Shown piece by piece: positions 22,935 to 45,165 of a DNA stretch of 45,328 bases. The position numbers were made by a program, and so were the translations under genes. How positions within the stretch are numbered: position 1 is the first letter of the stretch; every line of letters begins with the position of its first letter. The DNA comes from Rhodospirillaceae bacterium (GTDB lineage Bacteria; Pseudomonadota; Gammaproteobacteria; Steroidobacterales; Rariloculaceae): NCBI GenBank assembly GCA_024640685.1, contig JAHEEN010000004.1, positions 1-45,328 of the forward strand, read 5' to 3'. The notes below the pieces were generated by a model. That model made no database searches. It was not told where the DNA came from and was given only the letters and a program-made list of their open reading frames with translations.

Positions 22935-23025
22935 GGCTACGGCCGCTTCCGAGCGCACTCGAGATATTGGTTCGAGCTACGTTAGCGACCTGCCTAACGG
23001 TGAAGTCCAGCGAGTTGCGGACGTT
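22935..23025 (+). repeat. Paired degenerate palindromic repeat (GTCCGCTT...AGCGGAC family)
   Basis: GGCTACGGCCGCTTCCGAGCGCA matches 23962-23984 at 21/23 positions. A second, degenerate unit ends GCGGACGTT about 57 bp downstream. Confidence 0.6.
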
Positions 23026-23238
23026 TTCGCGAGGACACTGCCGGTTGGCCCTGCTGTCTCGATGTAGAGGCTCTCGGAGGCGCCTCATCGGGCGACATTG
23101 CCAAAACTTCCTCTCCGCGGCATTTCGCCGCGACCGCATTCATGGGCAGAAACTCGGTCTACCGCCGCGCTATTTTGTGAGCTAGTTCACAAGAAAACGA
23201 TGAAGACGCCAGCAGACTTCAACATAACGTAACCAGAA

Positions 23239-23856
23239 GTGAATTCCGCCGCTATGTATTGCCGAATATTTGCAATTGCTCTTACCGCAAACACAGTAAT
23301 GGGCTGCGCAATGATGCAGGATTTCGCCACCCTTCGATCTGTTGATTTTCAGCTTGAAGGAATTGCCCAGGGGCGCCTAGCTGGAATCGATCTCTCCCGC
23401 GCTCGATCGTCATCGGACTTGAGTATAAGCGACGGCGCCCGTGTCGAATCCGCGCTAATGCGCGGCGAACTGCCACTGTCGTTTCAGATCCAGGTACGCG
23501 CTGAGAACCCGATCCGGAACCGCGTTGCCGCACGACTTTTGCGATTGCAATGGACCTTGTTTTTAGACGACACGGAGACGATTTCGGGTCAGACTGCGCC
23601 CGGCTACAGATTACTGCCCGGCGAACCGACGACTGTTCCGATCGAAATTTCGCTCGATCTGCTCGAATTCTACGAGCCAAATAGCCAGGACCTCATCGAA
23701 CTCGCGATTAGCTTAGCCGGAGCTGGTGCAATACCAGAAAAAATTGCGGTCCGTGCGGTGCCAACTATAAATACGCGCCTGGGAGCGATCACGTATCCAG
23801 GGCCGATCAGGATTGCATCTGACTCCGTTGGACGCACATTTGTAGCTCAAAACTAA
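23239..23856 (+). CDS. LEA type 2 (WHy)-like lipoprotein
   Basis: Lipobox VMGC. LPLSF...VRAENP and L.RLQWTLFLDD.ETISG motifs. Confidence 0.7.
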   Translation: MNSAAMYCRIFAIALTANTVMGCAMMQDFATLRSVDFQLEGIAQGRLAGIDLSRARSSSDLSISDGARVESALMRGELPLSFQIQVRAENPIRNRVAARLLRLQWTLFLDDTETISGQTAPGYRLLPGEPTTVPIEISLDLLEFYEPNSQDLIELAISLAGAGAIPEKIAVRAVPTINTRLGAITYPGPIRIASDSVGRTFVAQN

Positions 23857-23961
23857 CGAACGCGACAGGCTAGCCGCGAACTAACCTTCAAGAAGTATTT
23901 CCGACAACGATCTACCGATACAGAAGTTCGCGACTAATGGTTGTCAACTTTTTGTTTCGAA

Positions 23962-24040
23962 GGCTACGTCCGCTTCGGAGCGCAGAGCAGACCGTTCGCT
24001 ATCCTCAACTAGCGTGCTGGCTAGGGACGGCTTGTGGCCG
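23962..24040 (+). repeat. Paired degenerate palindromic repeat
   Basis: GTCCGCTTCGGAGCGCAGAGCAGAC (23968) and GACGGCTTGTGGCCG (24026), 58 bp apart. Confidence 0.6.
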
Positions 24041-24065
24041 TTGAATCAGTATCCAGGAACCATTG

Positions 24066-25130
24066 CTAGTTCAACTCTTGCTCTACTTCACATGCGTAGC
24101 TATTAACGGATATCTCAGGTCTCCATATCCATGCCGTTGTTTGAGTGACCGGGGACTCCAACATGACTGGATCGGTCACTTCGATCTCATAGTCTAGTCT
24201 GCTTCCATCCGCGCTTGGCCTGAAAATCTCGAGCAGCTCAATCTCGGAACTTACCGGCAGCTCATACGTGCTCTCGGTGATATGGTTAGTTCGAATGACT
24301 AAGGCATCGCCATCCCAGCGACCGACCGAATGTCCCATTAGGGTATGCTCCTGCGGCACCTCTGCTTCGTCCGGATTCATATAGATAATCCGCCTAGAAT
24401 CGTTTTCCTCAAAGTGAATCACGATGTTCTCGCCATCTCGGACGAATTCCATCGGTAGCGGATTATTCATGAGTCTGGGCATATTCCAGTCCGTGCAACC
24501 AAGAATAAAATTGGCGGCTGGGTCCCATTCATCACGAACCGCTCGACCTTGAGCAGTAAATGGAAAGCTGTCAATTTCCTCATTGTTAAAGATCCCTCCC
24601 TCGTCAACTCGCAGCCTTTCTCCAATCCGGCTCCAGACCCGAAAGATCCCGTCGGCAGTTCGCCGCGCTATCTCGACGGCCTCCTCGTCGTAAGCGCCTT
24701 CCAGAAGTTCAACATCACCGTTAGCGGAAAAATACTCTCTGGCCCCAAGAGTGAGCAGAACCTCCTCTCCACTCGCCAACAGTATGTTCCTCGCAAACAT
24801 CTCTGGGCGGTTCCGCATCGACTGATCGCCGAGAATCTTGACGTTATCGCCGATGCTGAGGATTTCGCTGGTAATACCCTGGGCCCTAAGAACACCCAGC
24901 GCTCCAGACTCGACATGCCATCGGATCGTCTCGCCTCGTTCATCCTGAACATCAAGTTCAAAGATTGTGTGAGGATTCCTCCACTGAATTGCTCTAATTA
25001 CGCCTTCGATCTCTACTTTCACATCTGGATTGAAGAAAGCACGAGTCGAGTGATGAGCCAAGGATTCCGAAGGAAGGAGTAGAACCACAAATATCGCTAT
25101 GGATGACGCCTCGGCTCGATAGCAAAACAT
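24066..25130 (-). CDS. Secreted DUF6152-domain fusion protein
   Basis: AHHS, WRNPH, GC..WNMP and GHSVGRWDGDALVI motifs, ending YAC. Confidence 0.8.
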   Translation of the reverse strand: MFCYRAEASSIAIFVVLLLPSESLAHHSTRAFFNPDVKVEIEGVIRAIQWRNPHTIFELDVQDERGETIRWHVESGALGVLRAQGITSEILSIGDNVKILGDQSMRNRPEMFARNILLASGEEVLLTLGAREYFSANGDVELLEGAYDEEAVEIARRTADGIFRVWSRIGERLRVDEGGIFNNEEIDSFPFTAQGRAVRDEWDPAANFILGCTDWNMPRLMNNPLPMEFVRDGENIVIHFEENDSRRIIYMNPDEAEVPQEHTLMGHSVGRWDGDALVIRTNHITESTYELPVSSEIELLEIFRPSADGSRLDYEIEVTDPVMLESPVTQTTAWIWRPEISVNSYACEVEQELN

Positions 25131-25151
25131 TAGATTTCTCCCTCTGCGGAA

Positions 25152-25274
25152 GGTCGGCTTTCGGCCAGCTTGAGCTATCCGCTCAATGCTGAGAAGATAT
25201 CATCGGAAGTTCCGCTTTAGAGCGTTTTCTCGCTGTGAACGAAAGTTGACTCTTGGCTTCGGGCGCTTAGCGAT
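25152..25274 (+). repeat. Cluster of degenerate palindromic repeats
   Basis: GTCGGCTTTCGGCC (25153), TTCCGCTTTAGAGCG (25210) and TTGGCTTCGGGCGCTTAGCG (25253). Confidence 0.55.
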
Positions 25275-25279
25275 CTCCG

Positions 25280-26146
25280 TCATCTTTCGAATACTATCGG
25301 CTCAACTTCGACCTGTGTGTCGGCAGAGACGCTGATCGAGTGGTTCAACGGCACTGGCCTCCAATTGCTTCGGTCATCGGTTAACGGCTCGGAGGCAATG
25401 ATTACGGTACTGGCCTGGCTCATATCGCCCAGCATTTGATACTGCCCGTCCCGAACCTCGAATCGCTCACCCTGGGTGATATAGAGTGTCTCGGCGTGAC
25501 TGTCAGAGGCGGTCACGTAGCGGGTCGCGAGCAAACTATTGCCGTCGGTGACACACAGATTCAGTCGTGAAGCCTCGGTAACTCCCCCATCCTCAAGCCA
25601 GGTCTCTAAGAGTCCGATCGTTCGCTCCATGGCTAGCCGCCAGCTCTCGAGTGCACGGGTATCCTCATAGCGGCTGAGCTCATTCAAGAACAACCCGAAA
25701 ACGTGCTCCGAGTCCGTCGTCCCCTGAATCAGATCATAGTACTCGTCGCCTAAATGTTGTCTCAGCCGCCGTCTTATTGTTTTGAAACCCGCGACTCGTC
25801 CGTTGTGCATCCATAGGAAGTCCCCATGCAGAAACGGATGACAGTTCAGCTCAGTGACAGGCATCCCCGGTGACGCAGCACGTACGTGAGCGAATATACA
25901 GGTCGACCGTACTTTATCTGCCAGTCGACGCAGATTGCGATTGGCCCAGGCCGGTTGGATACTGGTAAAGACGCATGGTGTCGAGTCGATCTCTTTTGTA
26001 TACCAACCGACTCCAAAGCCATCACCATTCAGCGGTTCCTCGCGCTCGCGAGCACGGAAACTCTGATGAATCAGCGATTGCTCGGCGCGCGTCAGAAGGT
26101 CCGCTAGGAAGATCGGCTGACCCTTGTAGGCGACGAATCGACACAT
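25280..26146 (-). CDS. Class II glutamine amidotransferase (EgtC/YafJ/DUG3-like)
   Basis: N-terminal MCR nucleophile. NGDGFGVGWY, FAHVRAAS, NCHPF, MHNG, GTTDSE and ASEPL motifs. Confidence 0.9.
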   Translation of the reverse strand: MCRFVAYKGQPIFLADLLTRAEQSLIHQSFRAREREEPLNGDGFGVGWYTKEIDSTPCVFTSIQPAWANRNLRRLADKVRSTCIFAHVRAASPGMPVTELNCHPFLHGDFLWMHNGRVAGFKTIRRRLRQHLGDEYYDLIQGTTDSEHVFGLFLNELSRYEDTRALESWRLAMERTIGLLETWLEDGGVTEASRLNLCVTDGNSLLATRYVTASDSHAETLYITQGERFEVRDGQYQMLGDMSQASTVIIASEPLTDDRSNWRPVPLNHSISVSADTQVEVEPIVFER

Positions 26147-26858
26147 GAGGTCTAGCGCCGCAAGTGCCTAACTCGAACCTTCATGCCTAGAATCTCTTTG
26201 CCCGCCCCGGTTGGCCGGAGCAATTGCCGTCGATCCTGTCCCTATGCCAACAATAGCTCACTATGACGCCGACGTTCGCGAGCGTGTTGACCGTTTGTCC
26301 GCGATCAGTTTCTTCATGTTTCTGTTTGGTTGCCGTTGCTGATCGGCAGCCAACGGTCATTTAAGCCGTCAGCTTGACGCAGAGAATATATCACTACAAC
26401 TTCCGCTTTGAAGCTGCTTTTTGTCCTTATCCGACGCTAACGATACGAGTAGCGCTACGAGATTAGGGATGCTCGGATCGAATTGAAGCGTTAGCGATCA
26501 CAAGCCCTGTAGTGTCACAGAAATGCATCCAGCGTCAGCTGTCGGTCCGCAGAAAGGCGCATAGCTTTCACCCTCCCGGCGTGGCAATCAATCCGTGCAT
26601 AAGGAGTGGAGGGCCTCATTACCTAGCGTCAACTGCCCTAGGCTCGGTCTGAACAACTGCTTCGGGGCAAGTTCGAGACGTCGATTATTGGCGCGTTACT
26701 GATATTCATTACTAGTAATAACGCCCCAAAATGATCAATCGCGGCAACGGACTCAATTTGACAAATTATCGATAGATGCCAGAAACGTGACGGACTTGTA
26801 GTTTTGACGGCTGACAAACACTAGTCTCAAGACCAGCAATATCGAGTAAGGCGTCACT

Positions 26859-27095
26859 ATGAGGCAAGTCCGCCGGAAGGAGGCTACGGCCGCTAGAAAA
26901 CCAGAGCGCGAGCGAGAACGTCGCGATGATGTCCCTGTTTTGGAGGATGATGCTGTACTTGAGGTTCTTGAAGCAGCGCGTGAGATAAATGCTAGGCAGG
27001 AACATGGTGGCGATCCGATTAAGGGAGTAGGCATTGCGGTGATTGTTGGAGCGGCCGTATGGGCTTCCTTGGCCGCTGCCCTCGTATTGTTCTGA
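26859..27095 (+). CDS. Small membrane-anchored hypothetical protein
   Basis: Charged N-terminus followed by a C-terminal TM helix (GDPIKGVGIAVIVGAAVWASL). Confidence 0.5.
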   Translation: MRQVRRKEATAARKPERERERRDDVPVLEDDAVLEVLEAAREINARQEHGGDPIKGVGIAVIVGAAVWASLAAALVLF

Positions 27096-27125
27096 TACCG
27101 AATCCGTAGCCTTGGATCTGCATCG

Positions 27126-28508
27126 TCATGTCAGCCACGGCAGCGCCAGTGTTGCAAGACCCAGGACGAGAAAGAAGCCGCACATGTCAGTGACGGTCGT
27201 CAGCACCGGTCCCGACGCCAGCGCCGGATCTGCGCGCACTGCCTTGAGCAACAGCGGCACTGTGCCGCCTAATGACACAGCGACAAACGTGTTGATCGCG
27301 AGCGCCGCGCCGATCACGACGCCGAGCAACGCGTTGCCTTGCCAGAGATAAGCGGCGACTCCGAGCAGAAACCCGAGCGCTACGCCGTTCATCAGCCCGA
27401 CCGATGCTTCCTGCCACCAGACGCGCAGCGCGTCGCGGGGCTCGATGATCCCGAGCGTGAGCTCGCGCATCGTCACGGCAATCGCCTGGTTGCCCGAGCA
27501 GCCGCTCATGTCCGAGACGATCGGCAGAAACACCGCGAGTACGATCAACGCGCTCAACGTATCTTGAAACATTGCGATGACGCTGGCTGCAATAATGTTC
27601 AGGACAATATTGATGCTGAGCCACGACAATCGCCGCTTCGAGCGCGTGACCACGGGTAAATGTCGGAGCTCCTCACCGCCGACGATACCCTGCGATTTGA
27701 GCTGCTCATCCTGGGCGCGTTCTGCAATCGCATCCATGACGGCGTGTTGCCGCAAGCGCCCGACGAAGTGGCCGTCGCGATCGATGACCGGCGCGCCGAG
27801 CGTCTCGTAGCGCCGGAAGTAATCCTCGAGCTCGGTCAGTCCGGTGTCGACGCCGACGGGCTCGACAGCCTTGCTCAACGACGCGAGCGGCGTTTCGGGC
27901 TCGGCAAGCAGCACGTCGGCAATCTCGACGGCGCCCATCGGCTTGCGATCGACGTCGAGCAGGACCAGTCGTTGCGGCAGTTGCTCGACATCGTCACGTC
28001 GTTTACGAAGATCGACGAGAAAGTCGCCGACTGTTGCTGCGATCGGATAGACATAGAATTCGGTGCTCATCAGACCGCCGGCAACGTCTGCGGCGTAGGT
28101 GATCAAGCTGCGCATGCTGCCGGCGCGATCAGGGGGCATTTTGGCGAGGATCGCCTGGCGCTCGGGTGCTTCGATCTCCGCGAGCAGATCGGCGCCGTGG
28201 TCGCTGTCGAGCTCCTCGAAGATCTCCGCCGCCGCGCTCGCATCGAGCCGCTCGATCAGGTCCGCCGCGTGCACGTCGGGTAGGTCTTCGATGATTTCGG
28301 CGGCGCGATCAGCCGGCAATAACGCGACGAGCTGCTCTTGTTCCTCGCCGCTCAAGCGGAACAGCGCGCGGATTGTGGCGAGCGGCTCGAGGTCCTCGAG
28401 ATACGCAAGCAGTGCCTTGCCGTCTCCAGATGCGGTCAGGGATCTGAGCTTATCCCATGGTACATCCGGCATTACGCTTGCGTTACGGCTATCCGTCTCG
28501 TTGGCCAT
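27126..28508 (-). CDS. mgtE: Magnesium transporter MgtE
   Basis: MgtE N-domain, CBS pair (AGGLMSTE), RRLSWL, PIVSDMSGCSGNQA and DPALASGPVLTTVTDMCGF motifs. Confidence 0.93.
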   Translation of the reverse strand: MANETDSRNASVMPDVPWDKLRSLTASGDGKALLAYLEDLEPLATIRALFRLSGEEQEQLVALLPADRAAEIIEDLPDVHAADLIERLDASAAAEIFEELDSDHGADLLAEIEAPERQAILAKMPPDRAGSMRSLITYAADVAGGLMSTEFYVYPIAATVGDFLVDLRKRRDDVEQLPQRLVLLDVDRKPMGAVEIADVLLAEPETPLASLSKAVEPVGVDTGLTELEDYFRRYETLGAPVIDRDGHFVGRLRQHAVMDAIAERAQDEQLKSQGIVGGEELRHLPVVTRSKRRLSWLSINIVLNIIAASVIAMFQDTLSALIVLAVFLPIVSDMSGCSGNQAIAVTMRELTLGIIEPRDALRVWWQEASVGLMNGVALGFLLGVAAYLWQGNALLGVVIGAALAINTFVAVSLGGTVPLLLKAVRADPALASGPVLTTVTDMCGFFLVLGLATLALPWLT

Positions 28509-28615
28509 CGCCTACCTCTTCGACAACGCACGGTAAGTTTTTCCAGCGGTGAAACTGGTGGCGGCCACGATACTCCTGTCGGTCCGCCGTAGGAACCGAA
28601 GATCGACGGTCGACG

Positions 28616-29995
28616 TCAGCCTGCAAGTTTGCGAACGTCGGCCGAGGCGGTCAGCACGCCTTCGGCGAGGTAACGTTCGTGGTTCTTCTCGATGTCCGCA
28701 AGGTTGTACAGATAGTTGACCATGATGCCGGCTGATCGCTCTAGGCCGGCCGGTGACGGATCGGCAGCCCAATTGATTTGCTGGAGGCTTGCCCCATTGC
28801 TCATATGAAAACGCGTAACAGGGTCGAGCGGCTGGTCGCCGGCCTTGGCGTTCAACAGGTAGTAGCTACAGAGCCGCATCAAGCTTGCGCGTTGCCCGTC
28901 AGGGACGTCGTCGAGGTCCAGCTTAACCGACTGAGCCAGAAATTCGCGGGCGGTCTCGATATCGGCTGCCCGCGCTTCGGGCAACGAATCCAGCTGCACG
29001 CTCTCGAGCCAGCGCCGAAAACCTGGAACCGGCGACAGCGTTACGAACGTCTTGATGTTGTCGAGATCGCGTCGCAGCTCTTCGATGACTTGCTTGAGCA
29101 GGAAGTGGCCGAAGGAAATGCCCTGCAAGCCGTGATGGCAGTTGCTGATCGAGTAGAACACCGCCGTATCGGCATGACGTGGATTCGTAGTCGATCGATC
29201 GGGCGCCAGCAGCGGCCGAATCGCGTTTGCAGTACTGTCTGTCAACGCGACCTCGACGAAGATCAGCGGGTCGTCCGGCATCGCCGGATGAAAAAATGCG
29301 AAGCAGCGACGATCGTCAGCGAGCCGCGCGCGCAGATCGTCCCAGCCGTTGATCTCGTGAACGGCCTCGTACTCAATGATTTTTTCGAGCACGTTGGCCG
29401 ACGACGTCCAGTCGATGCGCTCCATGACGAGGAACCCGCGATTGAACCATGCGATCAACAGATGGCGAAGGTCGGTGTCGAGCGGACGCAGATGCGGACG
29501 CTCGCCAAGGACGTTGAGTAGGTCGCTGCGCAGCCTGACGAGGCGGCCGATTCCGTCAGGCACCATGTTGAGGCGTCGAAAGAGCTTCCGTCGCGGTGCC
29601 TCGACAGCTTTCGCCAACGCCGCTAGCGTCGTGGCGTCCGCAGCGTCCAAGTAGGCCGTTGCAGCATTGGCTATCGTCTCGTGGTCGGCCTCGAACTGCG
29701 CGACCAGCAGCTCGAAGAACTCGAGTCGGTCAGATACCGACAGTTTCTGGTACAGCGACAGAATCTCGTCGGCCAGCGCGAGGCCGGAGGCTTCGCCACG
29801 ATGGTCGAGTAGCTGCCGGCACAACGCGCCCAAGTGCTCGGCTGGACGGTCCTTGGCGCGATCACCGTTCCACGTCCGCGGCAGCAAACCACGGCCGACA
29901 TCGAGAATAGAGGACAGAATCCGCCGAAATGCGTCAGGACGGCGTACCGCGCGAATCGCGCCGGTGTCGTCTAAATGGGGGTTGGGCGTGCTCAT
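28616..29995 (-). CDS. Malonyl-CoA decarboxylase
   Basis: WFNRGFL, EKIIEYEAVHEI, DRRCFAFFHP, FYSISNC, TLSPVPGF and DPVTRFHMSNGA motifs. Confidence 0.93.
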   Translation of the reverse strand: MSTPNPHLDDTGAIRAVRRPDAFRRILSSILDVGRGLLPRTWNGDRAKDRPAEHLGALCRQLLDHRGEASGLALADEILSLYQKLSVSDRLEFFELLVAQFEADHETIANAATAYLDAADATTLAALAKAVEAPRRKLFRRLNMVPDGIGRLVRLRSDLLNVLGERPHLRPLDTDLRHLLIAWFNRGFLVMERIDWTSSANVLEKIIEYEAVHEINGWDDLRARLADDRRCFAFFHPAMPDDPLIFVEVALTDSTANAIRPLLAPDRSTTNPRHADTAVFYSISNCHHGLQGISFGHFLLKQVIEELRRDLDNIKTFVTLSPVPGFRRWLESVQLDSLPEARAADIETAREFLAQSVKLDLDDVPDGQRASLMRLCSYYLLNAKAGDQPLDPVTRFHMSNGASLQQINWAADPSPAGLERSAGIMVNYLYNLADIEKNHERYLAEGVLTASADVRKLAG

Positions 29996-30094
29996 TCCGT
30001 TGCGCCTAGCATGCTCGGTTCCATCCGGCTTACCGCATGGCGCGATATTGTATAACGCCGATTGTGACGGAAGCTCGACCAGTCCCGCATTTTT

Positions 30095-31402: not shown

Positions 31403-31405
31403 AGC

Positions 31406-31531: not shown

Positions 31532-31604
31532 TTAGACAGCATAGAGGTTAACAGACCGGTCCGGCGATTCCTGCTGCCGGCGGTCACGACGACAGGAGAC
31601 AACG

Positions 31605-34214: not shown

Positions 34215-34298
34215 GCGCTGATAAATGGCACACCCCTCGAAAGAGGGGGTCGCAAAGCCACCGGTCTAAGGAAGTTTCTAGGACAGCGGGGTTGCCAG
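34215..34298 (+). ncRNA. Cyclic di-GMP-I (GEMM) riboswitch
   Basis: GGCACACCCCTC-GAAA-GAGGGGGTCGCAAAGCCACCGGTCTAAGG...GACAGCGGGGTTGCC follows the GEMM P2 GNRA loop, CGCAAAGC junction and P3 receptor pattern. Confidence 0.88.
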
Positions 34299-34383
34299 CC
34301 ACGAGCCGCCAGGCTCGTTGCCCATCCTTCGTTGCGAAGCCTCTCGCGGCCGGTTGAACCGACGACCGATCGAGGATGGGACG

Positions 34384-34524
34384 ATGGTTTTCAATGAGCT
34401 CATGAGCATTACGCCGTACCCGGCGCAGCTGGATAAAGCCGAGCAGATCATCAACTACACGCTTTCGCGGCTCGAGGGCGAGGAGTCATTCGCGGTTGCG
34501 CGCATCGACACCGGCAGTTTTTAG
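34384..34524 (+). CDS. 46-aa small protein downstream of the riboswitch
   Basis: GAGGA upstream. Sequence MVFNELMSITPYPAQLDKAEQIINYTLSRLEGEESFAVARIDTGSF. Confidence 0.55.
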   Translation: MVFNELMSITPYPAQLDKAEQIINYTLSRLEGEESFAVARIDTGSF

Positions 34525-34630: not shown

Positions 34631-35227
34631 ATGCGATGGGTAATGGCTACAGTGGTCTTGCTCGCAAGCGGTACCGTGCTGGCACAGGATGTCTCGGGCG
34701 CTTACATGGGCGCGACAGTCGGCAATCTGACGTACACCGAGCAAGCCGACGGCTTGATCAGCTCGAGCGACTTCGACGACAGCGCATCGGCGTACCGGCT
34801 TTATGGCGGCTACCGCCTCGGCAAGCGGCTCGCGCTAGAGCTTGGCTATGCGACGAGCGACGGCGTCTCCGACACGATTGACATGGACCTGCTGGGCAGT
34901 TTCGTGCCGGTCGAGGTCAGCAACGATTTCACGCTGACGACGGCGCGAGCACTTTTGCATTTTCCAATCAGTGCTGAGCGTCTACCGTTCGTCAGCCTCA
35001 GCGTGTTCGCCGGTCTGGGCGTCTACGATGCCGATATCGAGTCAACCGGAACGATCGCCGGCTTGCCGTTTGCGGTGACCGAGACGACCGACGATGGCTC
35101 GACGGCGTTACTGGGGCTCCAAGTCGACTTTCCGAAGGTCAGCATTCGCGGCGAGTACGAGTGGTTCGATACGCAATCGAGCGTCGATATCTGGTCCGCT
35201 GGTGTCGGCCTGATTTTTCGCTTCTAA
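34631..35227 (+). CDS. Outer membrane beta-barrel protein (OmpA-like transmembrane domain)
   Basis: Signal peptide, G.Y.G and YGGYRL...ALELGY motifs, IRGEYEWFD, terminal Phe. Confidence 0.85.
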   Translation: MRWVMATVVLLASGTVLAQDVSGAYMGATVGNLTYTEQADGLISSSDFDDSASAYRLYGGYRLGKRLALELGYATSDGVSDTIDMDLLGSFVPVEVSNDFTLTTARALLHFPISAERLPFVSLSVFAGLGVYDADIESTGTIAGLPFAVTETTDDGSTALLGLQVDFPKVSIRGEYEWFDTQSSVDIWSAGVGLIFRF

Positions 35228-36802: not shown

Positions 36803-38437
36803 ATGTATTGTCGAGCTTTTGAGATTGCGCTAGTTCTTGCGCTGTCGCTCGCGACGCTCGGCAGCGCGCTTGCCGAGACACCGGTCGAGGCGCGCCTTCG
36901 CAACCGAATCGAGGCCGCGGTTTTCACCGATAGCCTCAAGGTCGCCGACGAGCGCATTCACGCGCGCGAGACGATGCGTGCGTTCTATCCACTGCGCGAC
37001 TATCGCCCGGTTTGGGTGGGGGAGGCCGGTCTCTCGCCGCGCGGTGATGCGTTGCTCAACTGGATCCACACCGCACCCGCGCGGCACGGACTCAGGCCTG
37101 CCGACTACCATGTCGCCGTACTGGATGAGCTCGAGAGTGCCGACCGGCTCGGTGCTATCGTGGATCTCGAGCTCGCGATGACCGACGCCTTCCTGATGCT
37201 TGGCTCTCACTTCCTGGCGGGCCGACTGAACCCCGAGACGCTCGATTCAGAGTGGATAGCGAATCGCCGCCATCGACCGCTCGCGCCGTTGCTGGAGCGC
37301 GCGGCTGAGTCCGACGCGCCCAGTGCCGTTCTCGAGGAGTTGCTGCCGACCGATCCGGCCTACCACGCGCTAGTGGGGCGTCTTGCGAGCTTTCGGCAAC
37401 GGCGCGACTCGCTTGGGAACTGGCCGGAAGTGCCCGATGGTGCGACGCTTCGTGAGGGCGATTCGGGTGCGCGCGTCGACGCGTTGATCGATCGGTTGAT
37501 CGCTGCTGGAGATCTCGATGGCGATGCGCGCCCGTCGATGTTCGACACGACCGTAGCAGATGCCGCGCGGCGCTTTCAGCTGCGTCACGGTCTCGCCGCC
37601 GACGGCGTTGTCGGTCGGCAGACGCTGCGCGCACTGAACGTGCCGATCCAGGACCGTATCGATCAGCTCATAGTCAATCTCGAGCGCTGGCGGTGGCTTC
37701 CGGAAGACCTCGGAGATCTCTATGTGATCGTCAATATCGCGGGCTTTCGTCTGGACGTCATCGAGAACGACACGTCGATTCTCGACATGCGGGTCGTTGT
37801 TGGACAGCCGTATCGGCGTACGCCCGTCTTCTCGGATCAGATTCGCTATCTCGTGCTGAGCCCGTATTGGGAGGTGCCGCCGAGTATCGCGACCGGCGAC
37901 AAGCTGCCGTTGATTAAACGGGATCCAAGCTATCTTGCGGCCCAGGGTTACGAGCTATTGAGTGGTTGGGGCGATCAGGAGCGCCCGGTCGATCCCGCCG
38001 ACGTCGATTGGAACAGCGTCACTGCGCGGAACTTTCCCTATCGTCTGCGGCAGAAACCGGGTTCATTCAACGCGTTGGGTGCTGTGAAGTTCATGTTTCC
38101 GAACAAGTTCTCGGTGTATCTGCACGATACGCCTGCGCGCGAGCTGTTCGGGCAGAACGCACGGGCGTTTAGCTCCGGATGTATTCGTCTAGATCGGCCG
38201 CTGGATCTCGCGGAGCTGTTGCTCAGCGACCAGGCCGAGTGGACACGACCGGGGATCGAAGCGGCTGCGGGTGGCAACAGCGAGCAGACTGTGCGACTCA
38301 CGCGCCCGGTTCCCGTGCACTTGCTGTACTGGACCGCTTGGATCGATCCGAGCAGTGGCGATCTTCACTTCAGGGACGATATTTATGGACGCGACAATCC
38401 AGTGCTCCGCGAGCTTCGCGAGATGCCGCCGAGCTGA
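36803..38437 (+). CDS. ldtD: L,D-transpeptidase YcbB/LdtD with peptidoglycan-binding domain
   Basis: Scaffold domain, FQLRHGL..DGVVG, NLERWRWLP and YLHDTP...RAFSSGCIRL motifs. Confidence 0.9.
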   Translation: MYCRAFEIALVLALSLATLGSALAETPVEARLRNRIEAAVFTDSLKVADERIHARETMRAFYPLRDYRPVWVGEAGLSPRGDALLNWIHTAPARHGLRPADYHVAVLDELESADRLGAIVDLELAMTDAFLMLGSHFLAGRLNPETLDSEWIANRRHRPLAPLLERAAESDAPSAVLEELLPTDPAYHALVGRLASFRQRRDSLGNWPEVPDGATLREGDSGARVDALIDRLIAAGDLDGDARPSMFDTTVADAARRFQLRHGLAADGVVGRQTLRALNVPIQDRIDQLIVNLERWRWLPEDLGDLYVIVNIAGFRLDVIENDTSILDMRVVVGQPYRRTPVFSDQIRYLVLSPYWEVPPSIATGDKLPLIKRDPSYLAAQGYELLSGWGDQERPVDPADVDWNSVTARNFPYRLRQKPGSFNALGAVKFMFPNKFSVYLHDTPARELFGQNARAFSSGCIRLDRPLDLAELLLSDQAEWTRPGIEAAAGGNSEQTVRLTRPVPVHLLYWTAWIDPSSGDLHFRDDIYGRDNPVLRELREMPPS

Positions 38438-38465
38438 GGCGCCTCGATATACGAGCCGTCTGCTC

Positions 38466-39386
38466 GTGATCATTGCTGTGTCGTGGCTGGCCGTGCAGCC
38501 GACGATTGCAACGTCGTTCGAGTCGGGCCGCGCCGAGTTCGCTGTCACAGTCAACGATCTCGAGATTCCTTATAGCGTCTTTGCGCTGTTCGTCCTGCCG
38601 GGTGAGTTGCTCTCTCTCGAGGCAGATGGATCGGTCGTATCGGCCGATGCATCGCAGTCCGCTCCTGAGCAGTCAGCGTTGGGTTGGCGGTGGCGAGCGC
38701 CGGGTAGTCCGGGCATCTATCGCCTGGACGTTACGCGTGGCGGCCATCGAATCGCGCTCAACGTGTTCGTCCTGGTTCCGCGCGATCGCGTACGGAATGA
38801 ACGATTGAACGACTATCTTATCGGCACTTATCCGAGCGAGCCGCTGAACGGCAATCCGCTCTATGAGCAACCCGACGGCTTTATCGAGCTTACGGAAGCA
38901 AACGCCGACACGCAGCTGTCACCGCATTTCAGGCTAGGCCAGTTTCCATCCAAGCAGTCTGGCGGCTATCCGAAGTACCTCGTATTGAGAGAGCAGCTGC
39001 TACTCAAGCTCGAGCTGCTATTGGAGGCGCTCAATAACGACGGCCGTACGGCGGAAACGTTGACGATCATGAGTGGTTATCGGACACCGTTCTACAATGC
39101 GGCCATTCGTAACGTGCCGTATAGCCGCCACGTTTACGGCGGTGCAGCCGATATCTACGTCGACGAGTCGCCGCGTGATGGAGACATGGATGATCTCAGT
39201 AGAGATGGCCGAATCGACTATCGCGACGCGCAGTATCTGCTGCGTCTAGCAGATACGCTCTTTCGAGACGCCGACTACGTCGAGTTGCGTGGCGGCATGG
39301 GCGTCTACCGGCGCAATGCGGCGCACGGCCCGTTCTTGCACATAGACGCGCGGCAACTGCGGGCGCGCTGGGGAGAGCTGCCCTAA
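38466..39386 (+). CDS. Peptidase M15A family (YcbK/MepK-like) with N-terminal extension
   Basis: LSPHFRL, SGYRTP.YN, SRHVYGGAADI and FLHIDAR motifs. Start codon uncertain. Confidence 0.82.
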   Translation: MIIAVSWLAVQPTIATSFESGRAEFAVTVNDLEIPYSVFALFVLPGELLSLEADGSVVSADASQSAPEQSALGWRWRAPGSPGIYRLDVTRGGHRIALNVFVLVPRDRVRNERLNDYLIGTYPSEPLNGNPLYEQPDGFIELTEANADTQLSPHFRLGQFPSKQSGGYPKYLVLREQLLLKLELLLEALNNDGRTAETLTIMSGYRTPFYNAAIRNVPYSRHVYGGAADIYVDESPRDGDMDDLSRDGRIDYRDAQYLLRLADTLFRDADYVELRGGMGVYRRNAAHGPFLHIDARQLRARWGELP

Positions 39387-39791
39387 CTCGGGCAATGGGT
39401 CTGCTATAGGGCGTTAAAGTCCCGCGGATGACGCGCGCGGGACCGGCCAGCCTGATTCGTGCGATCGAGGTCGCCGGCCCAACGCGCCCGCGTACCTCGA
39501 ACGTCGACGTGGAGATACGCGCCGCGAATCGCTGACGGGTAGCTGTGAAGGTTGCCGCCACGTACCTCGTTCGCCGGGACTCGGACGAAAGCTGTTAGCT
39601 CAACGCTGGGTTCATCGGTACGCGACACGTTGATCGCCGCTCGGCCTGGGGCTCGCGGATGTACATCGAGATCGCGACGAGATCGTTGTCGGACGGGTCC
39701 ATATCGCTGGCGACGACGCCCATGACGGGGTTGCTCTCGAGCTGGTCGAAAATGTCGACCGGTGACGGACCGACCAGCAGACTCGAGTCGA

Positions 39792-40211
39792 CTACTCGTC
39801 TCGTGGCCCCGGAGGCTTCAGGAGATCGGAAAATTTCATATTGAGGACCTGACCCGACGGCGTCGTTAACGTTTGACCCATCACGGACGTCACGGAGCCG
39901 CGGCCCGGGTGACCCATGGCCGTAACGGTATCACCGGGCTTGACCGAGTCATTCGTCCAACCGCCCATCTCTCGCATCTGCCCGGCATAGGCTTGAGCGT
40001 AGACGATCACTTCCGTCGACTCGCCATCGGCGCCCATCACCTCGAGAACGATCTCCGGATGTGGGTTGATGAGACGGAAGAGCTTGACGGTTCCAGTTAC
40101 CTCGACAACTTCATCGAGATGGTAGAAAGGGCCATGGGAATGGTGTGCGTGGACACCGCTCGCAGCCAACAGAATCGAGGCTGTCAGCGTACGCAGTGTG
40201 ACTGATTTCAT
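39792..40211 (-). CDS. Stand-alone DUF6152 family protein
   Basis: Signal + AHHSH, INPH and GW..DSVKPGDTV...GHP motifs. GGAAGG RBS. Confidence 0.85.
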   Translation of the reverse strand: MKSVTLRTLTASILLAASGVHAHHSHGPFYHLDEVVEVTGTVKLFRLINPHPEIVLEVMGADGESTEVIVYAQAYAGQMREMGGWTNDSVKPGDTVTAMGHPGRGSVTSVMGQTLTTPSGQVLNMKFSDLLKPPGPRDE

Positions 40212-40297
40212 GACTTCCTTCCTCGGTCGACGCAGCGGAATCGCCGATCGCCCGGATTGCGTGGGATGAGCGGATCAGGTGCCTGCAGAGGGCCTCG

Positions 40298-41053
40298 TCA
40301 GTCTCCGTATTTGGACACCGGGATTGTAGCCAACTGCCGCCGCGATTGCTCAGGGTCGCACGCACCCCATTCCCCGGGCGGAAACGTCGTGCGTTGAATC
40401 CGGCGTATCCAACTAAACGGCTCGTTGAGGAAGAGTGTGTCCTCATAAGTGATTTCGAGCTCGAGCGAATCGGGGCCGGCTCGTCTGTAACGCTCCGTCA
40501 GCCGTTTACGAGGTGAGCTCGGGAGATGACCGTGGTCGTCCAGCCCGTCCGGATCGAAAGTGAAATTCGTGGTCTCGACGACCAAGACATCATTTTCGTA
40601 ACGACCGATCGAGTGACCGTGATAGAACAATTCACTCGCTGGCGGATGGTCCCGGCCGTCCATCCAGATGGTTCGCCGACCGTCGTCGTGCTCATATGAG
40701 ATGAGTACTCGGTCTGGTCTCTGCACGATTTTCGTTGGGGTGGGGTGGCTCAGGATGCTCGGTAGTGGTGCCGGTGCACAATCCCACATACCTGACATTG
40801 GCTCGTCGAAGTACTGCGGCCACGCACGCAGCCTGGCGTTTGCCGGCGCCTGATCGATGGGGGCTGTGCACTCCTGCCGCACCTGACCGTTGTGATCGAT
40901 GTTCCAATCCCCGCAGGAATAGAACTCCCGAATAACCTGCCAGTTTCCAGCGACGTCGGGCGCGCCGGGCGGTTGAGCGGTAAGCAGCGCGGGCGCGAAG
41001 ATCAGCGCCAATAATAATAATGATGAGAAGCTCTTCGATCTACGCAGAAACAT
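40298..41053 (-). CDS. Secreted protein equivalent to the C-terminal domain of the DUF6152 fusions
   Basis: C.PAPLP, RRTIWMDGRDHP, GHSIGRYE.DVLVVET, ERYRR and CDPE motifs. Confidence 0.8.
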   Translation of the reverse strand: MFLRRSKSFSSLLLLALIFAPALLTAQPPGAPDVAGNWQVIREFYSCGDWNIDHNGQVRQECTAPIDQAPANARLRAWPQYFDEPMSGMWDCAPAPLPSILSHPTPTKIVQRPDRVLISYEHDDGRRTIWMDGRDHPPASELFYHGHSIGRYENDVLVVETTNFTFDPDGLDDHGHLPSSPRKRLTERYRRAGPDSLELEITYEDTLFLNEPFSWIRRIQRTTFPPGEWGACDPEQSRRQLATIPVSKYGD

Positions 41054-41307
41054 TTGAGCCCCCGTTTCGCCAAGCTCTGCAGACGGTGCGTGTTTCCGAC
41101 AAGTAGCACAGCGTAATCTATGCGTCAACGAGACGGCGTTTCCCGCCAATCAAAGCAGTCACTTAGAGTTTCGGGCTGAATCTAGCCCAATCTCGGCGTC
41201 CGGACCATTCTCGCTTCGAACCGGTATTAAATTCTGGTGCCTCGCGCGAAATTCGTTTATCGAAAACTCACCTGGCACCGACTTTGAGCCTTTGGTCTGC
41301 ACGCTGC

Positions 41308-41332
41308 GTCCGCCGGGGCGCACAGCCGACAT
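41308..41332 (+). repeat. Degenerate palindromic repeat copy
   Basis: GTCCGCCGGGGCGCACAGCCGACAT. The GGGGCGCACAGCCGAC part matches 45149-45164 at 15/16 positions. Confidence 0.55.
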
Positions 41333-41397
41333 GCGGTTTCGCGACGTTAATTGCTACCTTAACGAACTACGGCCAATAGCATACGTTCGCATGTGGC

Positions 41398-41871
41398 TCA
41401 CGCCGACTCTCTTTTTACCGAAAGCTGCTCCTCGAGGAAATCCTGAAATGACTCGTCAAATGATTCTTTGAACACATTCCAGGACGCCCGAATAGCCTGC
41501 CGTCGGCTTCCGAGGTTCTGGATTATCCAAAGCAACTCTCGCCAATACTCGTCCGGAAGCAAACGCTTCCTCCGTAGCACATACATATCGTGCCAGTGGA
41601 GAATTGCTCGGCGCTCGAAGAAGACCAGCCGAGTCCTCTCGACTTCACCAAGACTTTCAAAATTCATACCTTGGACCCAAATCTCCGCGAATTCCTGGCT
41701 ATCGCTAACCGACGTCGATAGTTCAGTGTCTCGCTGTACACGCTCGCTCGCGGCGCTCGCGCGCATCATCTCTGTGTTCTGGCCAATCTGTCTGGCAACG
41801 TAGATAAGTGATGCAACCACTGCAATCGCTGCGATGATCTTTCCAATGTAGGCATATTGTTCGAGCGTCAT
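41398..41871 (-). CDS. Hypothetical protein with N-terminal TM helix
   Basis: GAGGGG RBS. N-terminus MTLEQYAYIGKIIAAIAVVASLIYVARQI.QNT followed by a helical body. Confidence 0.75.
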   Translation of the reverse strand: MTLEQYAYIGKIIAAIAVVASLIYVARQIGQNTEMMRASAASERVQRDTELSTSVSDSQEFAEIWVQGMNFESLGEVERTRLVFFERRAILHWHDMYVLRRKRLLPDEYWRELLWIIQNLGSRRQAIRASWNVFKESFDESFQDFLEEQLSVKRESA

Positions 41872-42083
41872 GATTTCCCCTCATTCTTCTTTGTTCGGGG
41901 GGTATTATGCGCCCGGCGCTAGTCGAGGTTGCGTGCGCTACCGGATCTGAAACGCCGCTCGAAAATAAGCTCCCGCCTAGCTTATCTCAGTAAGACTCTT
42001 ATTGTCGGGAGCTATGAAAAAATCACTCGGCTAGGCGAAAATCGTTCGTACGGCGAATTCTCAAAGTAATTGTGAGGTTCGAC

Positions 42084-42599
42084 TTAAATTTTGCAGGAAG
42101 CAGGAAGAAATGCCTGATCGACCGTCGGCGCGAGATAGGCTGCTGCACGCCCTCCCCCTGCTGTGCCGATCGGGCTCAATCCGGCTGGCTCCAACGCTGC
42201 GCCGCAGCGCCATACGACGCCGAGATTCGCCGTCTCGTAAGGGGTAAGGGTTAGAGTACGACCAGCGATGATCGCGTTCGCCCGGTTTCCGAAAGTGACG
42301 ACAATGACACCATCCACGATACCCACAGAGGCCACATAGATACCCGCCGTATCGGCAGCGTTCGGTGTAAGGCTTGCTTGCGCACGATCGGCTGGTGCCT
42401 CACCGTCGATCTGAAACGCTTCTGCAACTTGGGTCTTAACGTTTGCCGTGAGTTGTAGGGCTTCAGAAACCTGAGCGCGGACCGTGTAGCCCTGGTAGGC
42501 GGGAATGCCAATCGCAGCCAGTATTCCGACGATGCCCACGACGATCATGAGCTCGATCAGGGTAAATCCAGTTTGTTTCCGGTCGATCACTAAGAGCAT
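42084..42599 (-). CDS. pilA: Type IVa major pilin
   Basis: Prepilin cleavage site KQTG|[30 protein letters not shown]-terminal disulfide (WRC...PASC). Confidence 0.92.
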
Positions 42600-42941
42600 C
42601 TCTAATTTCGATGTTCACGAAGCCTAACTCATGGTTTCGGCTAAGCCTCAGGATTTCCTTGCTCATTACCTGGATTAATTTGCGCTCGCATTTCATCTAA
42701 ATGTGCAACGGTTGAGTTCAGCAGTCACGAAGTACGCTCAGCCTGTAACGGACTGCGCATTAGATCCTGGGCTTGCATGAGCCAGAAGAGAGGACTAACC
42801 GGGTAAACTTGGGGCTAGCAGTTTGCGGCCGATAGCACTGGGGTGGACTCCTCCTCACCTTACGGCATCACGATGCTCCAGACTGGATTGAGCGTTCTTC
42901 AAAACGAATTATCTCAGTCACAGGAAGACAAGAAATCCGAG

Positions 42942-43464
42942 ATGCAGATTACCCGTGTTGGTGTGGATTTGCCGCAAAACGTCTTTCAGGTACATGGCGT
43001 CGATGCCACAGGTCGGCCAGTGCTTACACGGCAACTCAAGCGTTTCAACTGGCTGAAGGTGCTTAGCCAAATACGACAACCAGGCTGCGACATTGGCATG
43101 GAAGCCTGCGTCGGGTCGCATCACCGGGCGCGGGAGCTTCAATCGCGCGGATTTTAGGTCAAGCTCATCGCGCCACAGTTCGTCAAGCACCTCAAAACAT
43201 CACGGCACCGGCGGTAAGAATCTCATCTACCGCATCACCAAACTTGGCGATCCTTATCTGCGTAGCATCTTGATCCATGGCGCTCGTGCCGTAGTCAGCC
43301 AGGCCAAACGGCGTGATGACCACTTGAGTAGATGGGGCACCGAGCTTGCTCAGAAACGGCACACGAACGTCGCCGCAGTGGCTCTCGCCAACAAGACCGC
43401 GCGTATTGCCTGGGCAATGCTCAGATATGGGACTGATTACAACCCAGAGCTCGTCCGCTGCTAG
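42942..43464 (+). pseudogene. IS110-family recombinase/transposase pseudogene
   Basis: GVDL..NVFQVHG...GMEAC N-terminus with a premature TAG at 43155. After IAPQFVK the sequence jumps to the C-terminal GG....ITK.GD.YLR..LIHGAR / VALANK.ARIAWA block (internal deletion). Confidence 0.88.
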
Positions 43465-43519
43465 GCGATCGAGCTCAATCGCTGAATAACAAAAAGCCTG
43501 TCACTTACGCTTGCAAAGC

Positions 43520-43700
43520 ACAGTGGAAGATGCTGAAACGGTCGATCCGGCGCCAGTCAAACCCGAGAATGTCCGGGTGCGAAAAAGCACGTAAAAGCGA
43601 TTGGGAACTGGCGCGCGCAGACCCAACAAGGCCCCGCATCAACGTATGCCAACTCTCGAGGCGGGATACACGGGCGCAGTCATCCTGCTCCCCACTAACC
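43520..43700 (+). ncRNA. Putative bridge/seek RNA in the IS1111 right-hand non-coding region
   Basis: Stem GCGCCAGT/ACTGGCGC encloses an internal loop (GAATGTCCG / TAAAAGC) and inner hairpin GTGC-GAAAAA-GCAC. A second stem-loop follows. Boundaries approximate. Confidence 0.65.
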
Positions 43701-43771
43701 ACTGGCTTGCAAAACGAGGAGGAGTCCATATGCGGTCATTCACGCATTTATTCGTGAACCTGACCTGTGCT

Positions 43772-44212
43772 CTAGTCTGCGCTAACGAGATTTATCGTGA
43801 TTACCAAGTCCGTCGCGGATAAGACGATTTTTGCGTCTTCGTAGGATGCCGGCCCGAAGCGACCACGCGCGTTGTTGGAAAAACCAATTCTCTCTTTTGG
43901 TATTCGGAACAGCCCCGTGTCTAGTTCGCCATCCATATCTTCATCGTAGATCGCGCTTACAGCGTATTCCCCCGAAACTAGCCCGTGAAAGACTACGGTA
44001 CATCGGCCTTCGTCATTCACCATGCCCGTCTGCTGGGCTGTGGGCGTTTGCAGAAAATTTTCAGAATCGAACAGCGAAACGATAACTTGGCCCAGATTCG
44101 GATGTGCGTCTTCTACAGTCACCGTCAATAACAGCCCGCTATCCTGAGCCCACACCTCACTGACAGAGACTACACACAGCAGGACCACGAAGGGCCTTTT
44201 CATTAGGTTCAT
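43772..44212 (-). CDS. DUF2141 family protein
   Basis: G.V.VSLF, GEYAVS..YDED.DGELDT....IPKE..GFSNNA...FGP motifs. Confidence 0.88.
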   Translation of the reverse strand: MNLMKRPFVVLLCVVSVSEVWAQDSGLLLTVTVEDAHPNLGQVIVSLFDSENFLQTPTAQQTGMVNDEGRCTVVFHGLVSGEYAVSAIYDEDMDGELDTGLFRIPKERIGFSNNARGRFGPASYEDAKIVLSATDLVITINLVSAD

Positions 44213-44248
44213 CGGTCCACGCTATTCAATTCGAGCACAACCTGATGC

Positions 44249-44500
44249 TTAACTGCCGCTGAGTTGGTCTCGGATCTCGCCCAGCCGATCGTAGGTCCTA
44301 AACGCGAGAATTGCGGTCTCAAAAATTACACGAACAGTCAGGGTTCCAAATATGAGCGGAAAGGGCCATGCCCAATGCCCCCGCGAGTAAAGAATGGCGC
44401 TTCCATAAAGCGTTCCACCTATTGCTCCCCAGAAAAGAATCTGAAGAAGCATCGGCGAAATCATCCGACGAAACGTCAGAGTCTCAATTAGCGTCTTCAT
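44249..44500 (-). CDS. DUF4282-like small membrane protein
   Basis: LTF..MISP.LLQILFW ... RV..E..IL.FR....L..I pattern. Confidence 0.7.
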   Translation of the reverse strand: MKTLIETLTFRRMISPMLLQILFWGAIGGTLYGSAILYSRGHWAWPFPLIFGTLTVRVIFETAILAFRTYDRLGEIRDQLSGS

Positions 44501-44957
44501 GCCGCACCTCCCTTACTGCGAACCAATATGCCCAGCCTATCAGGACAACCTGAACCGGGGCGCGCACCAATAGATAGGCAGGGCCCCATTGATGTCCTCC
44601 CATACCGACCGAATGAATTGCTGCGTAGATATTGGCAGGGAAGAATGCCGCCAGAACGACGATGCAGGCCCAACCGGATAGTCTCCGGGTACCGGCATTC
44701 CAGAGGCCGGCCGCTAGTACCCACTCAAGAATCCCCGTTGCATAAATGACCGCAATTCTTCTGGGTGCCCAAGGCGGTAACATCTCCGCCATCGGTTCCG
44801 TCTGCACAAAATGCCCCATACCGAAAAATATGAAAGCCGCGATGAGACCAATGACGCCGCCAATATCGGGATCGATAACAGGTCGCCGCCAGGCGATGAG
44901 ACGTACCGCAGCGAATGGCACCACCAGGATCGCAAGAATAAGGACCGGAGTCGTCAA
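44484..44957 (-). CDS. DoxX-like membrane protein
   Basis: G.GHF....M..MLPPW.P, TGILE, FPANIYAA and LLVR.PVQ motifs. Confidence 0.8.
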   Translation of the reverse strand: MTTPVLILAILVVPFAAVRLIAWRRPVIDPDIGGVIGLIAAFIFFGMGHFVQTEPMAEMLPPWAPRRIAVIYATGILEWVLAAGLWNAGTRRLSGWACIVVLAAFFPANIYAAIHSVGMGGHQWGPAYLLVRAPVQVVLIGWAYWFAVREVRHEDAN

Positions 44958-45075
44958 CCGTCACCCTGTATTTCTGGCACCGTTGTTCCGTTTCTATCGC
45001 GAGTCCTGCGCTTGTGCCAGCGTCTACATCCGGACAGCTTAAGCCGAAAACTCGATTCCGAGAACATACCACGGG

Positions 45076-45165
45076 AACGTCCGCTCTTCGCTCGTATCTC
45101 GCCGTAATTTCTTGTTAATGACTTGGACCCGATCCAACCGGTAGCTTTGGGGCGAACAGCCGACC
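45076..45165 (+). repeat. Paired degenerate palindromic repeat
   Basis: GTCCGCTCTTCGCTC (45079) and GGTAGCTTTGGGGCGAACAGCCGACC (45140), 61 bp apart. Confidence 0.55.

Follow-up and report, generated by a model that had tools for sequence, protein, structure and literature searches.

Palindromes between accessory genes of a gammaproteobacterial genome belong to a ~205-bp structured element that may be a promoter-carrying mobile module

A family of ~205-nt elements between acquired genes

We describe here a family of short, structured repeats found on contig C7 (JAHEEN010000004.1) of a Rhodospirillaceae bacterium assembly (GCA_024640685.1; family Rariloculaceae in the GTDB lineage). The window analysed is the entire contig, at 45,328 nt, and the assembly to which it belongs (genome G000 below) amounts to 3.49 Mb in 333 contigs. 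An earlier note on this DNA had picked out an imperfect palindrome of ~28 bp, present in about a dozen copies on the same strand in the spacers of two lower-GC tracts, and had taken these copies for composite sites of an integron-like gene-capture system whose recombinase is encoded elsewhere. There is indeed a real repeat beneath these palindromes; they are not independent 28-bp sites, however, but parts of one ~205-nt structured element that carries a promoter-like box.

As it had been typed (GTCCGCTT-N10-AGCGGAC, with up to three mismatches), the palindrome is not enriched, giving 2 matches, which are one site read on both strands, where 100 shuffles average 2.37. A repeat search nevertheless brought out direct repeats between spacers of the window (25170-25223 with 26361-26414, and 41315-41349 with 45149-45183), and the window spacers are also similar to other contigs of the genome. 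The earlier note had proposed a profile or covariance-model scan of the genome and its relatives: starting from the best copy (C72:2341-2560), an iterated nhmmer profile yields 28 copies or fragments at E<=0.01, spread over 17 contigs, and with a covariance model of the element (R1) it turns up in 10 of the 61 genomes examined from the family, distributed over 3 of 14 genera (G000 and 3/4 further genomes in genus g1, 5/8 in g4 and 1/2 in g6). Copies are ~70-80% alike. Seven lie in the window, all of them on the + strand, as claimed, and all within 22831-26723 or 41291-45213; they are listed here with the tracts that hold them, together with those positions of the earlier palindromes that they cover.

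21430-27125, unstranded: low-GC tract 1 (GC 0.51-0.54), an insertion between convergent TamB and MgtE genes (composition; Pfam)
22831-23020, + strand: full-length copy, profile 9-198 (nhmmer E 9e-36; R1 147 bits at 22819-23028); covers 22941 (internal hairpin) and 22998 (right terminus)
23927-23993, + strand: fragment, profile 77-144, with internal hairpins 1 and 2 (nhmmer E 4e-4; sequence read); covers 23968
25153-25262, + strand: first-half copy, profile 2-111 (nhmmer E 6.5e-20; R1 64 bits), with left terminus, promoter-like box, first internal hairpin and CGTTAACG box region; covers 25153, 25210 and 25253
26344-26444, + strand: first-half copy, profile 1-101 (nhmmer E 7e-20); covers 26345 and 26401
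26615-26723, + strand: second-half copy, profile 80-187 (nhmmer E 2e-17; R1 37 bits), with a long hairpin bearing two CGTTAACG-type boxes, plus internal hairpins; covers 26655
39387-45328, unstranded: accessory tract 2, running to the contig end (composition; synteny with G004:C286 ends at ~39373)
41291-41380, + strand: second-half copy, profile 107-196 (nhmmer E 1e-11); covers 41308
45021-45213, + strand: full-length copy, profile 1-196 (nhmmer E 2e-40; R1 168 bits); covers 45079 and 45140

Twelve of the 15 positions given for the palindrome thus fall inside element copies, with 24026, 41132 and 42817 outside them, and what had been described as pairs 56-61 bp apart proves to be a set of sub-motifs within one unit, namely the left terminus, two CCGCT-loop-AGCGG hairpins and the right terminus. 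Half copies occur alone, first halves running from profile 1 to ~100-114 and second halves from ~75-116 to 198. The restriction to low-GC spacers holds genome-wide: 24 of the 28 copies have 1-kb flanks below the 10th GC percentile (median flank GC 0.55 vs 0.625 for the genome) and 27 lie off confidently called genes, so that copies do sit, as had been said, at gene junctions in acquired low-GC DNA. At gathering thresholds, Rfam gives nothing at the elements in the window.

The copy at 45021-45213 stops 115 nt short of the contig end, and contigs C209, C1, C224 and C7 all have an element copy 115-240 nt from one of their ends, a sign that the assembly may break near element arrays.

Anatomy and predicted fold

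Read on its + strand, in an alignment of 11 full-length copies, the element is a non-coding unit of ~205 nt with two terminal inverted repeats and two internal hairpins. The left terminus (CGTCCGCTTTCGGCC; three of the 11 copies start with CGTC) is followed by a small CTC...GAG hairpin, an invariant-looking block (AGAATATATCAC) and the first CCGCT-loop-AGCGG hairpin. Beyond this lie TCGCCGTTA, five bases, CGTTAACG and the second CCGCT-loop-AGCGG hairpin, then a small hairpin with a conserved GACA loop; the right part consists of CGTTAACG, seven bases, TAACGGCGA and the right terminus, GGCCAAnAGCGGACG.

In the consensus fold the GCCGTTA and TAACGGC boxes pair as a 9-bp stem, which leads through a 5x7 internal loop to an 8-bp CGTTAACG/CGTTAACG stem and two small covarying hairpins. 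Pairing is found in 85.1% of cells in 44 copies aligned to R1 vs 78.7% after shuffling (none of 500 shuffles as high), this alignment having been fitted to R1, a fit that favours the result; 20 of the 25 pairs have changed on both sides, and slid-partner controls leave 29-47% of cells paired. The structure is predicted on the + strand, where non-Watson-Crick cells include 31 G-T pairs, vs 6 cells for which only the other strand would give G-T, and it is the strand antisense to the flanking genes on which the element is predicted to fold best. A base-paired stem formed by the terminal repeats themselves was considered and rejected, as they show no covariation.

A promoter-like box that faces gene starts

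Read on the gene-sense strand, the invariant-looking block is GTGATATATTCTC, an extended -10 box (TGATATATT) and the most conserved part of the element; of 38 copies from three genera, 34 retain TGnTAnnnT. The box points out of one element end, toward the start of the next gene, and from this we infer that the block acts as a promoter. Within the copy at 26344-26444 a promoter scan recognises the following site:

26385-26412, - strand: promoter-like site (TTCAAA, 16 nt, TATATT, with TG), pointing at the gene at 25280-26146

It is the one sigma-70-like site that the scan reports in 21400-27200, vs a shuffle mean of 3.8.

Orientation relative to genes, as called by a simple codon-usage gene caller, is strict. 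Where a gene is called at the promoter end (the end with the AGAATATATCAC block), 12 of 15 copies face the start of a gene transcribed away from the element, this start being 23-277 nt off in 11 of the 12. At the opposite end a stop codon lies 6-45 nt away in 6 of 11 cases, which are all six of the genes found within 50 nt; in the other five a gene start lies 126-623 nt away. In the window, the left end of 25153-25262 is 23 nt from the start of the gene at 24066-25130, and 18 nt separate the right end of 41291-41380 from the stop codon of the gene at 41398-41871. Wherever a contig that was read holds two or more copies, every copy is on one strand, at a spacing of about one gene (0.3-1.9 kb). 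There is no replication-strand bias, the + strand of the element being the G-rich strand in 8 of 17 contigs.

A small tyrosine recombinase and a ~740-bp unit with similar ends

A search of G000 for tyrosine recombinases returns five matches: two Xer-like proteins, one fragment and two small paralogues, at C209 1354-1965 (203 aa; PF00589, 69.1 bits) and C142 710-1342 (210 aa; 56.5 bits). Each of the two small genes lies within ~1.2 kb of an element copy or fragment. An alignment shows that the C142 copy keeps all positions of the conserved Arg, His-x-x-Arg, His and Tyr, which we take to be the catalytic residues. Upstream of the C209 gene stands GTCCGCTTCCGGCCAACTT, and downstream of the C142 gene and of a homologue on G055:C13 are motifs ending in GCGGACAT, among them one complete GTCCGCTTT-N-AAAGCGGACATT palindrome such as the earlier note had described. 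To that extent this note is borne out: at C209 and C142, away from the window, the genome encodes a tyrosine recombinase whose own gene has the same end motif; it is the integron-like parts of the proposal that fail, as set out below. Both genes look decayed in this genome.

The protein belongs to a family of at least 8000 matches, typically of 208 aa and annotated merely as 'tyrosine-type recombinase/integrase', with ~70% identity across Pseudomonas, Paraburkholderia, Halomonas, methanotrophs and metagenome-assembled genomes (MAGs) of other phyla. Its gene is the only one in a ~740-bp unit with 24-bp inverted ends and a hairpin after the stop codon (examples among loci L098-L177, such as L165 and L167, and G076:C59 9813-10559), present at about one copy per genome. 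One end, GTCCGCTTCTGGCCGGTTAGCGAC, stands ~115 nt upstream of the gene and its reverse complement ~55-70 nt downstream. The best inverted repeat reaches at least 14/18 in 33 of 74 loci vs 9 of 74 shuffled controls, spanning 728-751 bp in 19 loci, and in each of two Pseudomonas genomes the pair of 24-mers spans exactly 747 bp. No conserved neighbour gene accompanies the recombinase in 80 loci from species genomes. In the literature that we searched, neither the element nor a tyrosine-recombinase unit of this size turned up.

What connects this unit with the element is its ends. The outer 14 nt of the 24-bp ends are the element terminus motif GTCCGCTTYYGGCC, with a match of 12/14, and beside the G055 copy, which is of the lineage studied here, the adjoining end matches the element terminus at 14/14. 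The downstream end motif occurs in 14 of 75 recombinase loci vs 1 of 61 background windows; it is this looser motif alone that is enriched, a strict GTCCGC...GCGGAC palindrome having been tried and found near the recombinase in just 2 of 80 loci. Recombinase homologues, mostly fragments, are present in 4 of the 10 element-bearing genomes vs 2 of the other 51. Beyond the outer 14 nt the two differ: the unit consists of one gene at about one copy per genome, whereas the element is geneless, has a different interior and reaches 28 copies.

On C142 (locus L052, 1978-4883) we also note open reading frames (ORFs) that by eye resemble DUF3489 and DUF2924, followed by a large serine recombinase of 627 aa, which is the scored match. 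All lie 0.6-1.7 kb away from the small tyrosine recombinase gene, probably as part of a separate integrative element; as a partner of the C142 recombinase the trio was rejected, being present in 0 of 80 loci.

A promoter between inverted ends, with a small recombinase encoded elsewhere, brings invertons to mind, such as the fim switch and the promoter invertons of Bacteroides, and one could imagine that a small tyrosine invertase flips the promoter and so phase-varies genes for exported proteins. The ~200-bp size, the conserved promoter-like box and the many loci per genome would all fit; several copies do lie between divergent genes (22831-23020 in the window; others on C173, C76 and C302), pilin and signal-peptide proteins are among the neighbours, and the recombinase, at ~200 aa, weakly matches a model of tyrosine-type DNA invertases (E 1e-4, far under the cut-off). 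Inversion, however, needs matching crossover regions, and the repeats within copies are poor, at 72% complementarity and with no covariation; gene starts lie opposite the promoter end in 12 of 15 cases, a single dominant orientation rather than a mixture, and the large conserved structure would be superfluous. We regard this explanation as distinctly improbable.

Comparison with integron attC sites

Integrons do occur in the genus, an IntI match of 466 bits adjoining canonical attC sites in G002. In G000 itself, two canonical ~102-nt attC sites (15064-15165 and 15819-15920) abut a core gene on C265 (~14866-16400), where no intI was found, so that this appears to be an integron array that lost its integrase; the orthologous place holds a 39-aa C-terminal IntI remnant on G001:C393 and an intact IntI on G002:C39. 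It could then be supposed that the elements are a degenerate attC cluster left behind after such a loss, akin to a cluster of attC sites lacking integron-integrases (CALIN). They share with attC sites the arrangement of one repeat per gene, on one strand, in low-GC acquired tracts, as well as an imperfect one-strand hairpin with paired, AAC/GTT-containing boxes, an unpaired asymmetric (5x7) loop and a wobble bias to the antisense strand (31 vs 6). In addition, the 157-aa protein encoded at 41398-41871 resembles, by eye and unscored, the product of an ORF between the two C265 attC sites, which would place a homologue in a canonical cassette.

Against this stand the boxes themselves, GCCGTTA/TAACGGC and CGTTAACG/CGTTAACG, since the outer GCCGTTA...TAACGGC pair has the polarity opposite to that of attC. 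RYYYAAC/GTTRRRY ends are lacking, as had already been remarked: on each strand the whole window offers 2 loose pairs, complementary at 4-5 of the 7 core positions. An attC model built from 7 canonical attC sites of relatives (R2) recovers both held-out C265 sites at 68.9 and 64.1 bits, and nothing else in G000 at E<=1, so none of the 28 element copies; an unfiltered run over the window and five array contigs, 83,876 bases in all, matched no copy either, the best score (15.9 bits) lying elsewhere. No match to the IntI model TIGR02249 over its cut-off exists in G000, and at E<=1e-40 IntI is found in 0 of the 10 element-bearing genomes, which are incomplete MAGs (72-96% complete), vs 19 of the 51 others; as the genomes are related and many are incomplete, we read this non-overlap as a pattern and attach no statistical test to it. 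Moreover, the element has twice the usual attC length and terminal inverted repeats, ~100 nt of each copy form a conserved promoter-bearing module foreign to attC sites, and copies are spread over 17 contigs rather than in one array. An attC origin is largely refuted by these results, and we consider it very improbable.

Host tracts, cargo genes and insertions

Tract 1 lies between TamB (17920-21429, + strand) and MgtE (27126-28508, - strand), which are 39 nt apart in a congener (G004:C327) vs 5.7 kb in the window. In tract 2, all genes from 39.8 to 45 kb outside the insertion-sequence (IS) remnant are co-oriented, as stated previously. The features of the two tracts referred to here are the following.

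24066-25130, - strand: cargo gene, 354 aa, DUF6152 domain (Pfam E 2.8e-18), with the promoter end of an element 23 nt upstream
25280-26146, - strand: cargo gene, 288 aa, class-II glutamine amidotransferase-like (Pfam GATase_4, E 4e-17)
41398-41871, - strand: cargo gene, 157 aa, no Pfam family (sequence read)
42844-43728, + strand: IS110-family remnant, 885 bp, its frames broken and its 13-nt inverted ends perfect (Pfam Transposase_20, E 4e-5; inverted repeat)

The IS110 remnant sits between a pilin gene (42084-42599) and a DUF2141 gene (43772-44212), and adjoins the former palindrome position 42817, which no element model confirms.

A second insertion, on G003:C127, places 880 nt between convergent genes that are ~10 nt apart on G000:C34, in the order first half, one truncated-globin-like gene, second half. 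Its left part may be a whole diverged element, and exact edges are not fixable as the species are only ~70-80% identical at the DNA level. Both of these insertions relative to congeners contain genes, and their edges are off the element termini.

Fourteen sequencing runs contain part of tract 1, with no RNA run listed. Run contigs (~2-6x, rare variants dropped) show two joints, at 23562/23684 and 27693/27789, neither of them at elements; joints of circles, inversions or deletions are absent from these assembled contigs, which at ~2-6x cannot exclude rare forms, so that their absence bears neither way. Contigs from two other studies bridge gene-element junctions (X5 records 21 and 22, 22671-23309; X6 record 27, 26081-26397).

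With its parts changed, the capture proposal of the earlier note lives on as our main rival explanation, a cassette system in which the ~205-nt elements would be recombination sites and a circle of element plus gene would be excised between direct copies and reinserted at another copy, building up co-oriented gene-element arrays; integron cassettes and IS26 translocatable units work in much the same way. One may picture a gene-capture system independent of integrons, in which the 208-aa recombinase moves gene-plus-element units by way of the one-strand-folding elements, captured genes gain promoters, co-oriented arrays arise at many sites and the ~740-bp unit is the autonomous form. Such a system accounts for the one-strand arrays, with copies about one gene apart, and for the tight fit to genes (stop codons 6-45 nt from one end; starts 23-277 nt from the other, in 11 of 12) better than random insertion of a MITE (miniature inverted-repeat transposable element) does. 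The tracts are insertions between convergent core genes; the G003:C127 insert can be read as one element opened near its CGTTAACG box around one gene; first halves in G000 mostly end near that box (profile 100-114 in 8 copies); the folding strand is antisense to the genes, just as attC sites fold on their bottom strand; and there is a recombinase gene that carries the same end motif.

Yet no circle, excision, deletion or alternative junction was seen, nor any presence/absence breakpoint exactly at the motif, of the kind that the earlier note had proposed to look for. If the left part of the G003 insert is a complete diverged element, its neat circular permutation is lost. The edges of the half copies are blurred, first halves in relatives ending at profile 79-150 (109-150 in 6 of 7) and second halves in G000 beginning anywhere from 75 to 116; no cargo gene was found in common, at the DNA level, between genomes in different contexts; and at ~70-80% likeness between copies no recent exchange is visible. 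We hold a capture system of this kind to be unlikely, at something like a one-in-several chance.

The cargo genes suggest another possibility, namely a non-mobile regulatory region, either a promoter/leader spread by duplication of paralogues or a repeat of the repetitive extragenic palindrome (REP) or bacterial interspersed mosaic element (BIME) type served by a REP-associated tyrosine transposase (RAYT). The promoter box is the most conserved block of the element, and DUF6152 genes adjoin elements on G000:C7, G000:C173 (two), G001:C22 and G055:C26 (two), in two genera. Other neighbours are unrelated, however (amidotransferase, methyltransferase, globin-like and no-Pfam genes), the second half of the element is found not upstream but downstream of genes, and the element occurs in three genera with differing neighbours.

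As to a REP, the element is likewise an extragenic palindrome often found downstream of genes, with CGTC at the start of 3 of 11 copies, and G000 has one Y1-transposase match, at C238; that contig carries no R1 copy, and a unit of ~205 nt compares with 20-40 nt for REPs (or for REPs paired in REPINs). PMC3733652 describes four families of CGTC-tagged REPs, with A-T first stem pairs; the element has no such pairs, its stem composition is unlike that of the four families as described there, and on stem composition and unit size we rejected identity with a CGTC-tagged REP. Neither form of a non-mobile or REP-type origin seems probable to us, and together we give them only a small chance.

DUF6152 proteins form a large paralogous family in G000, with members at 24066-25130 and 39792-40211 in the window and at 2768-3835 and 4029-5087 on C173; the copy of one relative has matches of 65-75% DNA identity on more than 15 G000 contigs. 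Elsewhere in the window, Rfam identifies a c-di-GMP-I riboswitch aptamer at 34217-34299 (+ strand; 76.3 bits, the gathering score being 35); small ORFs, at 34318-34524 and 34631-35227, lie downstream of it.

Discussion

Synthesising these observations, we propose that the palindromes belong to a ~205-bp, MITE-like and promoter-carrying mobile junction module, which shares its ends with a minimal recombinase unit and is not an integron site; we put the probability of this reading at about one half. The element is short, non-coding and multi-copy, with terminal inverted repeats and with ends that match those of an enzyme-encoding unit, as is usual for a MITE. We suggest that it is a non-autonomous relative of the ~740-bp unit, whose recombinase would act on the element ends and would have spread or recombined the element in trans. 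At ~70-80% likeness between copies the element would now be old in G000, and with both recombinase genes looking decayed it is probably no longer moving; it may have been retained as a junction module, giving the acquired gene downstream a promoter of its own.

The Correia elements of Neisseria, which are MITEs with outward promoters, offer a close parallel in form, being likewise short, non-coding, intergenic, structured and multi-copy, with terminal inverted repeats and the ability to supply a promoter (putative here). The element differs from such MITEs in lacking a target-site duplication, in being strictly oriented to both neighbouring genes, and in having ends that match a tyrosine-recombinase unit rather than an IS with a DDE transposase.

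A number of observations weigh against the proposed MITE-like origin, and concern the insertion history, the recombinase and the termini in turn. No target-site duplication is found in the flanks of 7 full-length G000 copies, no insertion bounded exactly by the termini emerges from the congener comparisons, and insertion alone does not explain the strict orientation relative to genes or the snug fit to stop codons; the recurrence of DUF6152 paralogues beside elements also implies that some copies may stem from gene duplication. The C209 recombinase has Cys where 6 of 7 aligned homologues have a conserved Arg, its unit lacks a right end, and that of C142 lacks a left end within 218 nt. The recombinase query finds nothing in 6 of the 10 element-bearing genomes (G001, G003, G004, G044, G050 and G060; 72-96% complete); outside G000 and G055, three of the four matches are fragments, two of them with stop codons, and the fourth (G034) is 33% identical. 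Among 80 metagenome recombinase loci an element match occurs in one, and is marginal at 17.9 bits, with none beside the closest metagenome relatives of the recombinase, so that recombinase and element are linked in this lineage only. Finally, the termini are conserved as sequence without covariation: they are 72.1% complementary within copies vs 71.8% when shuffled, with 245 of 500 shuffles as high.

If the proposal is true, acquired genes in these sediment bacteria arrive with, or receive, a portable junction piece that supplies a promoter, which would help to explain how foreign low-GC genes are expressed in a high-GC host. The more interesting part may be the ~740-bp unit, which in its behaviour resembles an insertion-sequence-sized mobile element working with a tyrosine recombinase; with at least 8000 homologues across Proteobacteria and beyond, it would have in these elements its first recognised non-autonomous relatives, and this raises the question of whether a tyrosine recombinase other than IntI can assemble gene arrays.

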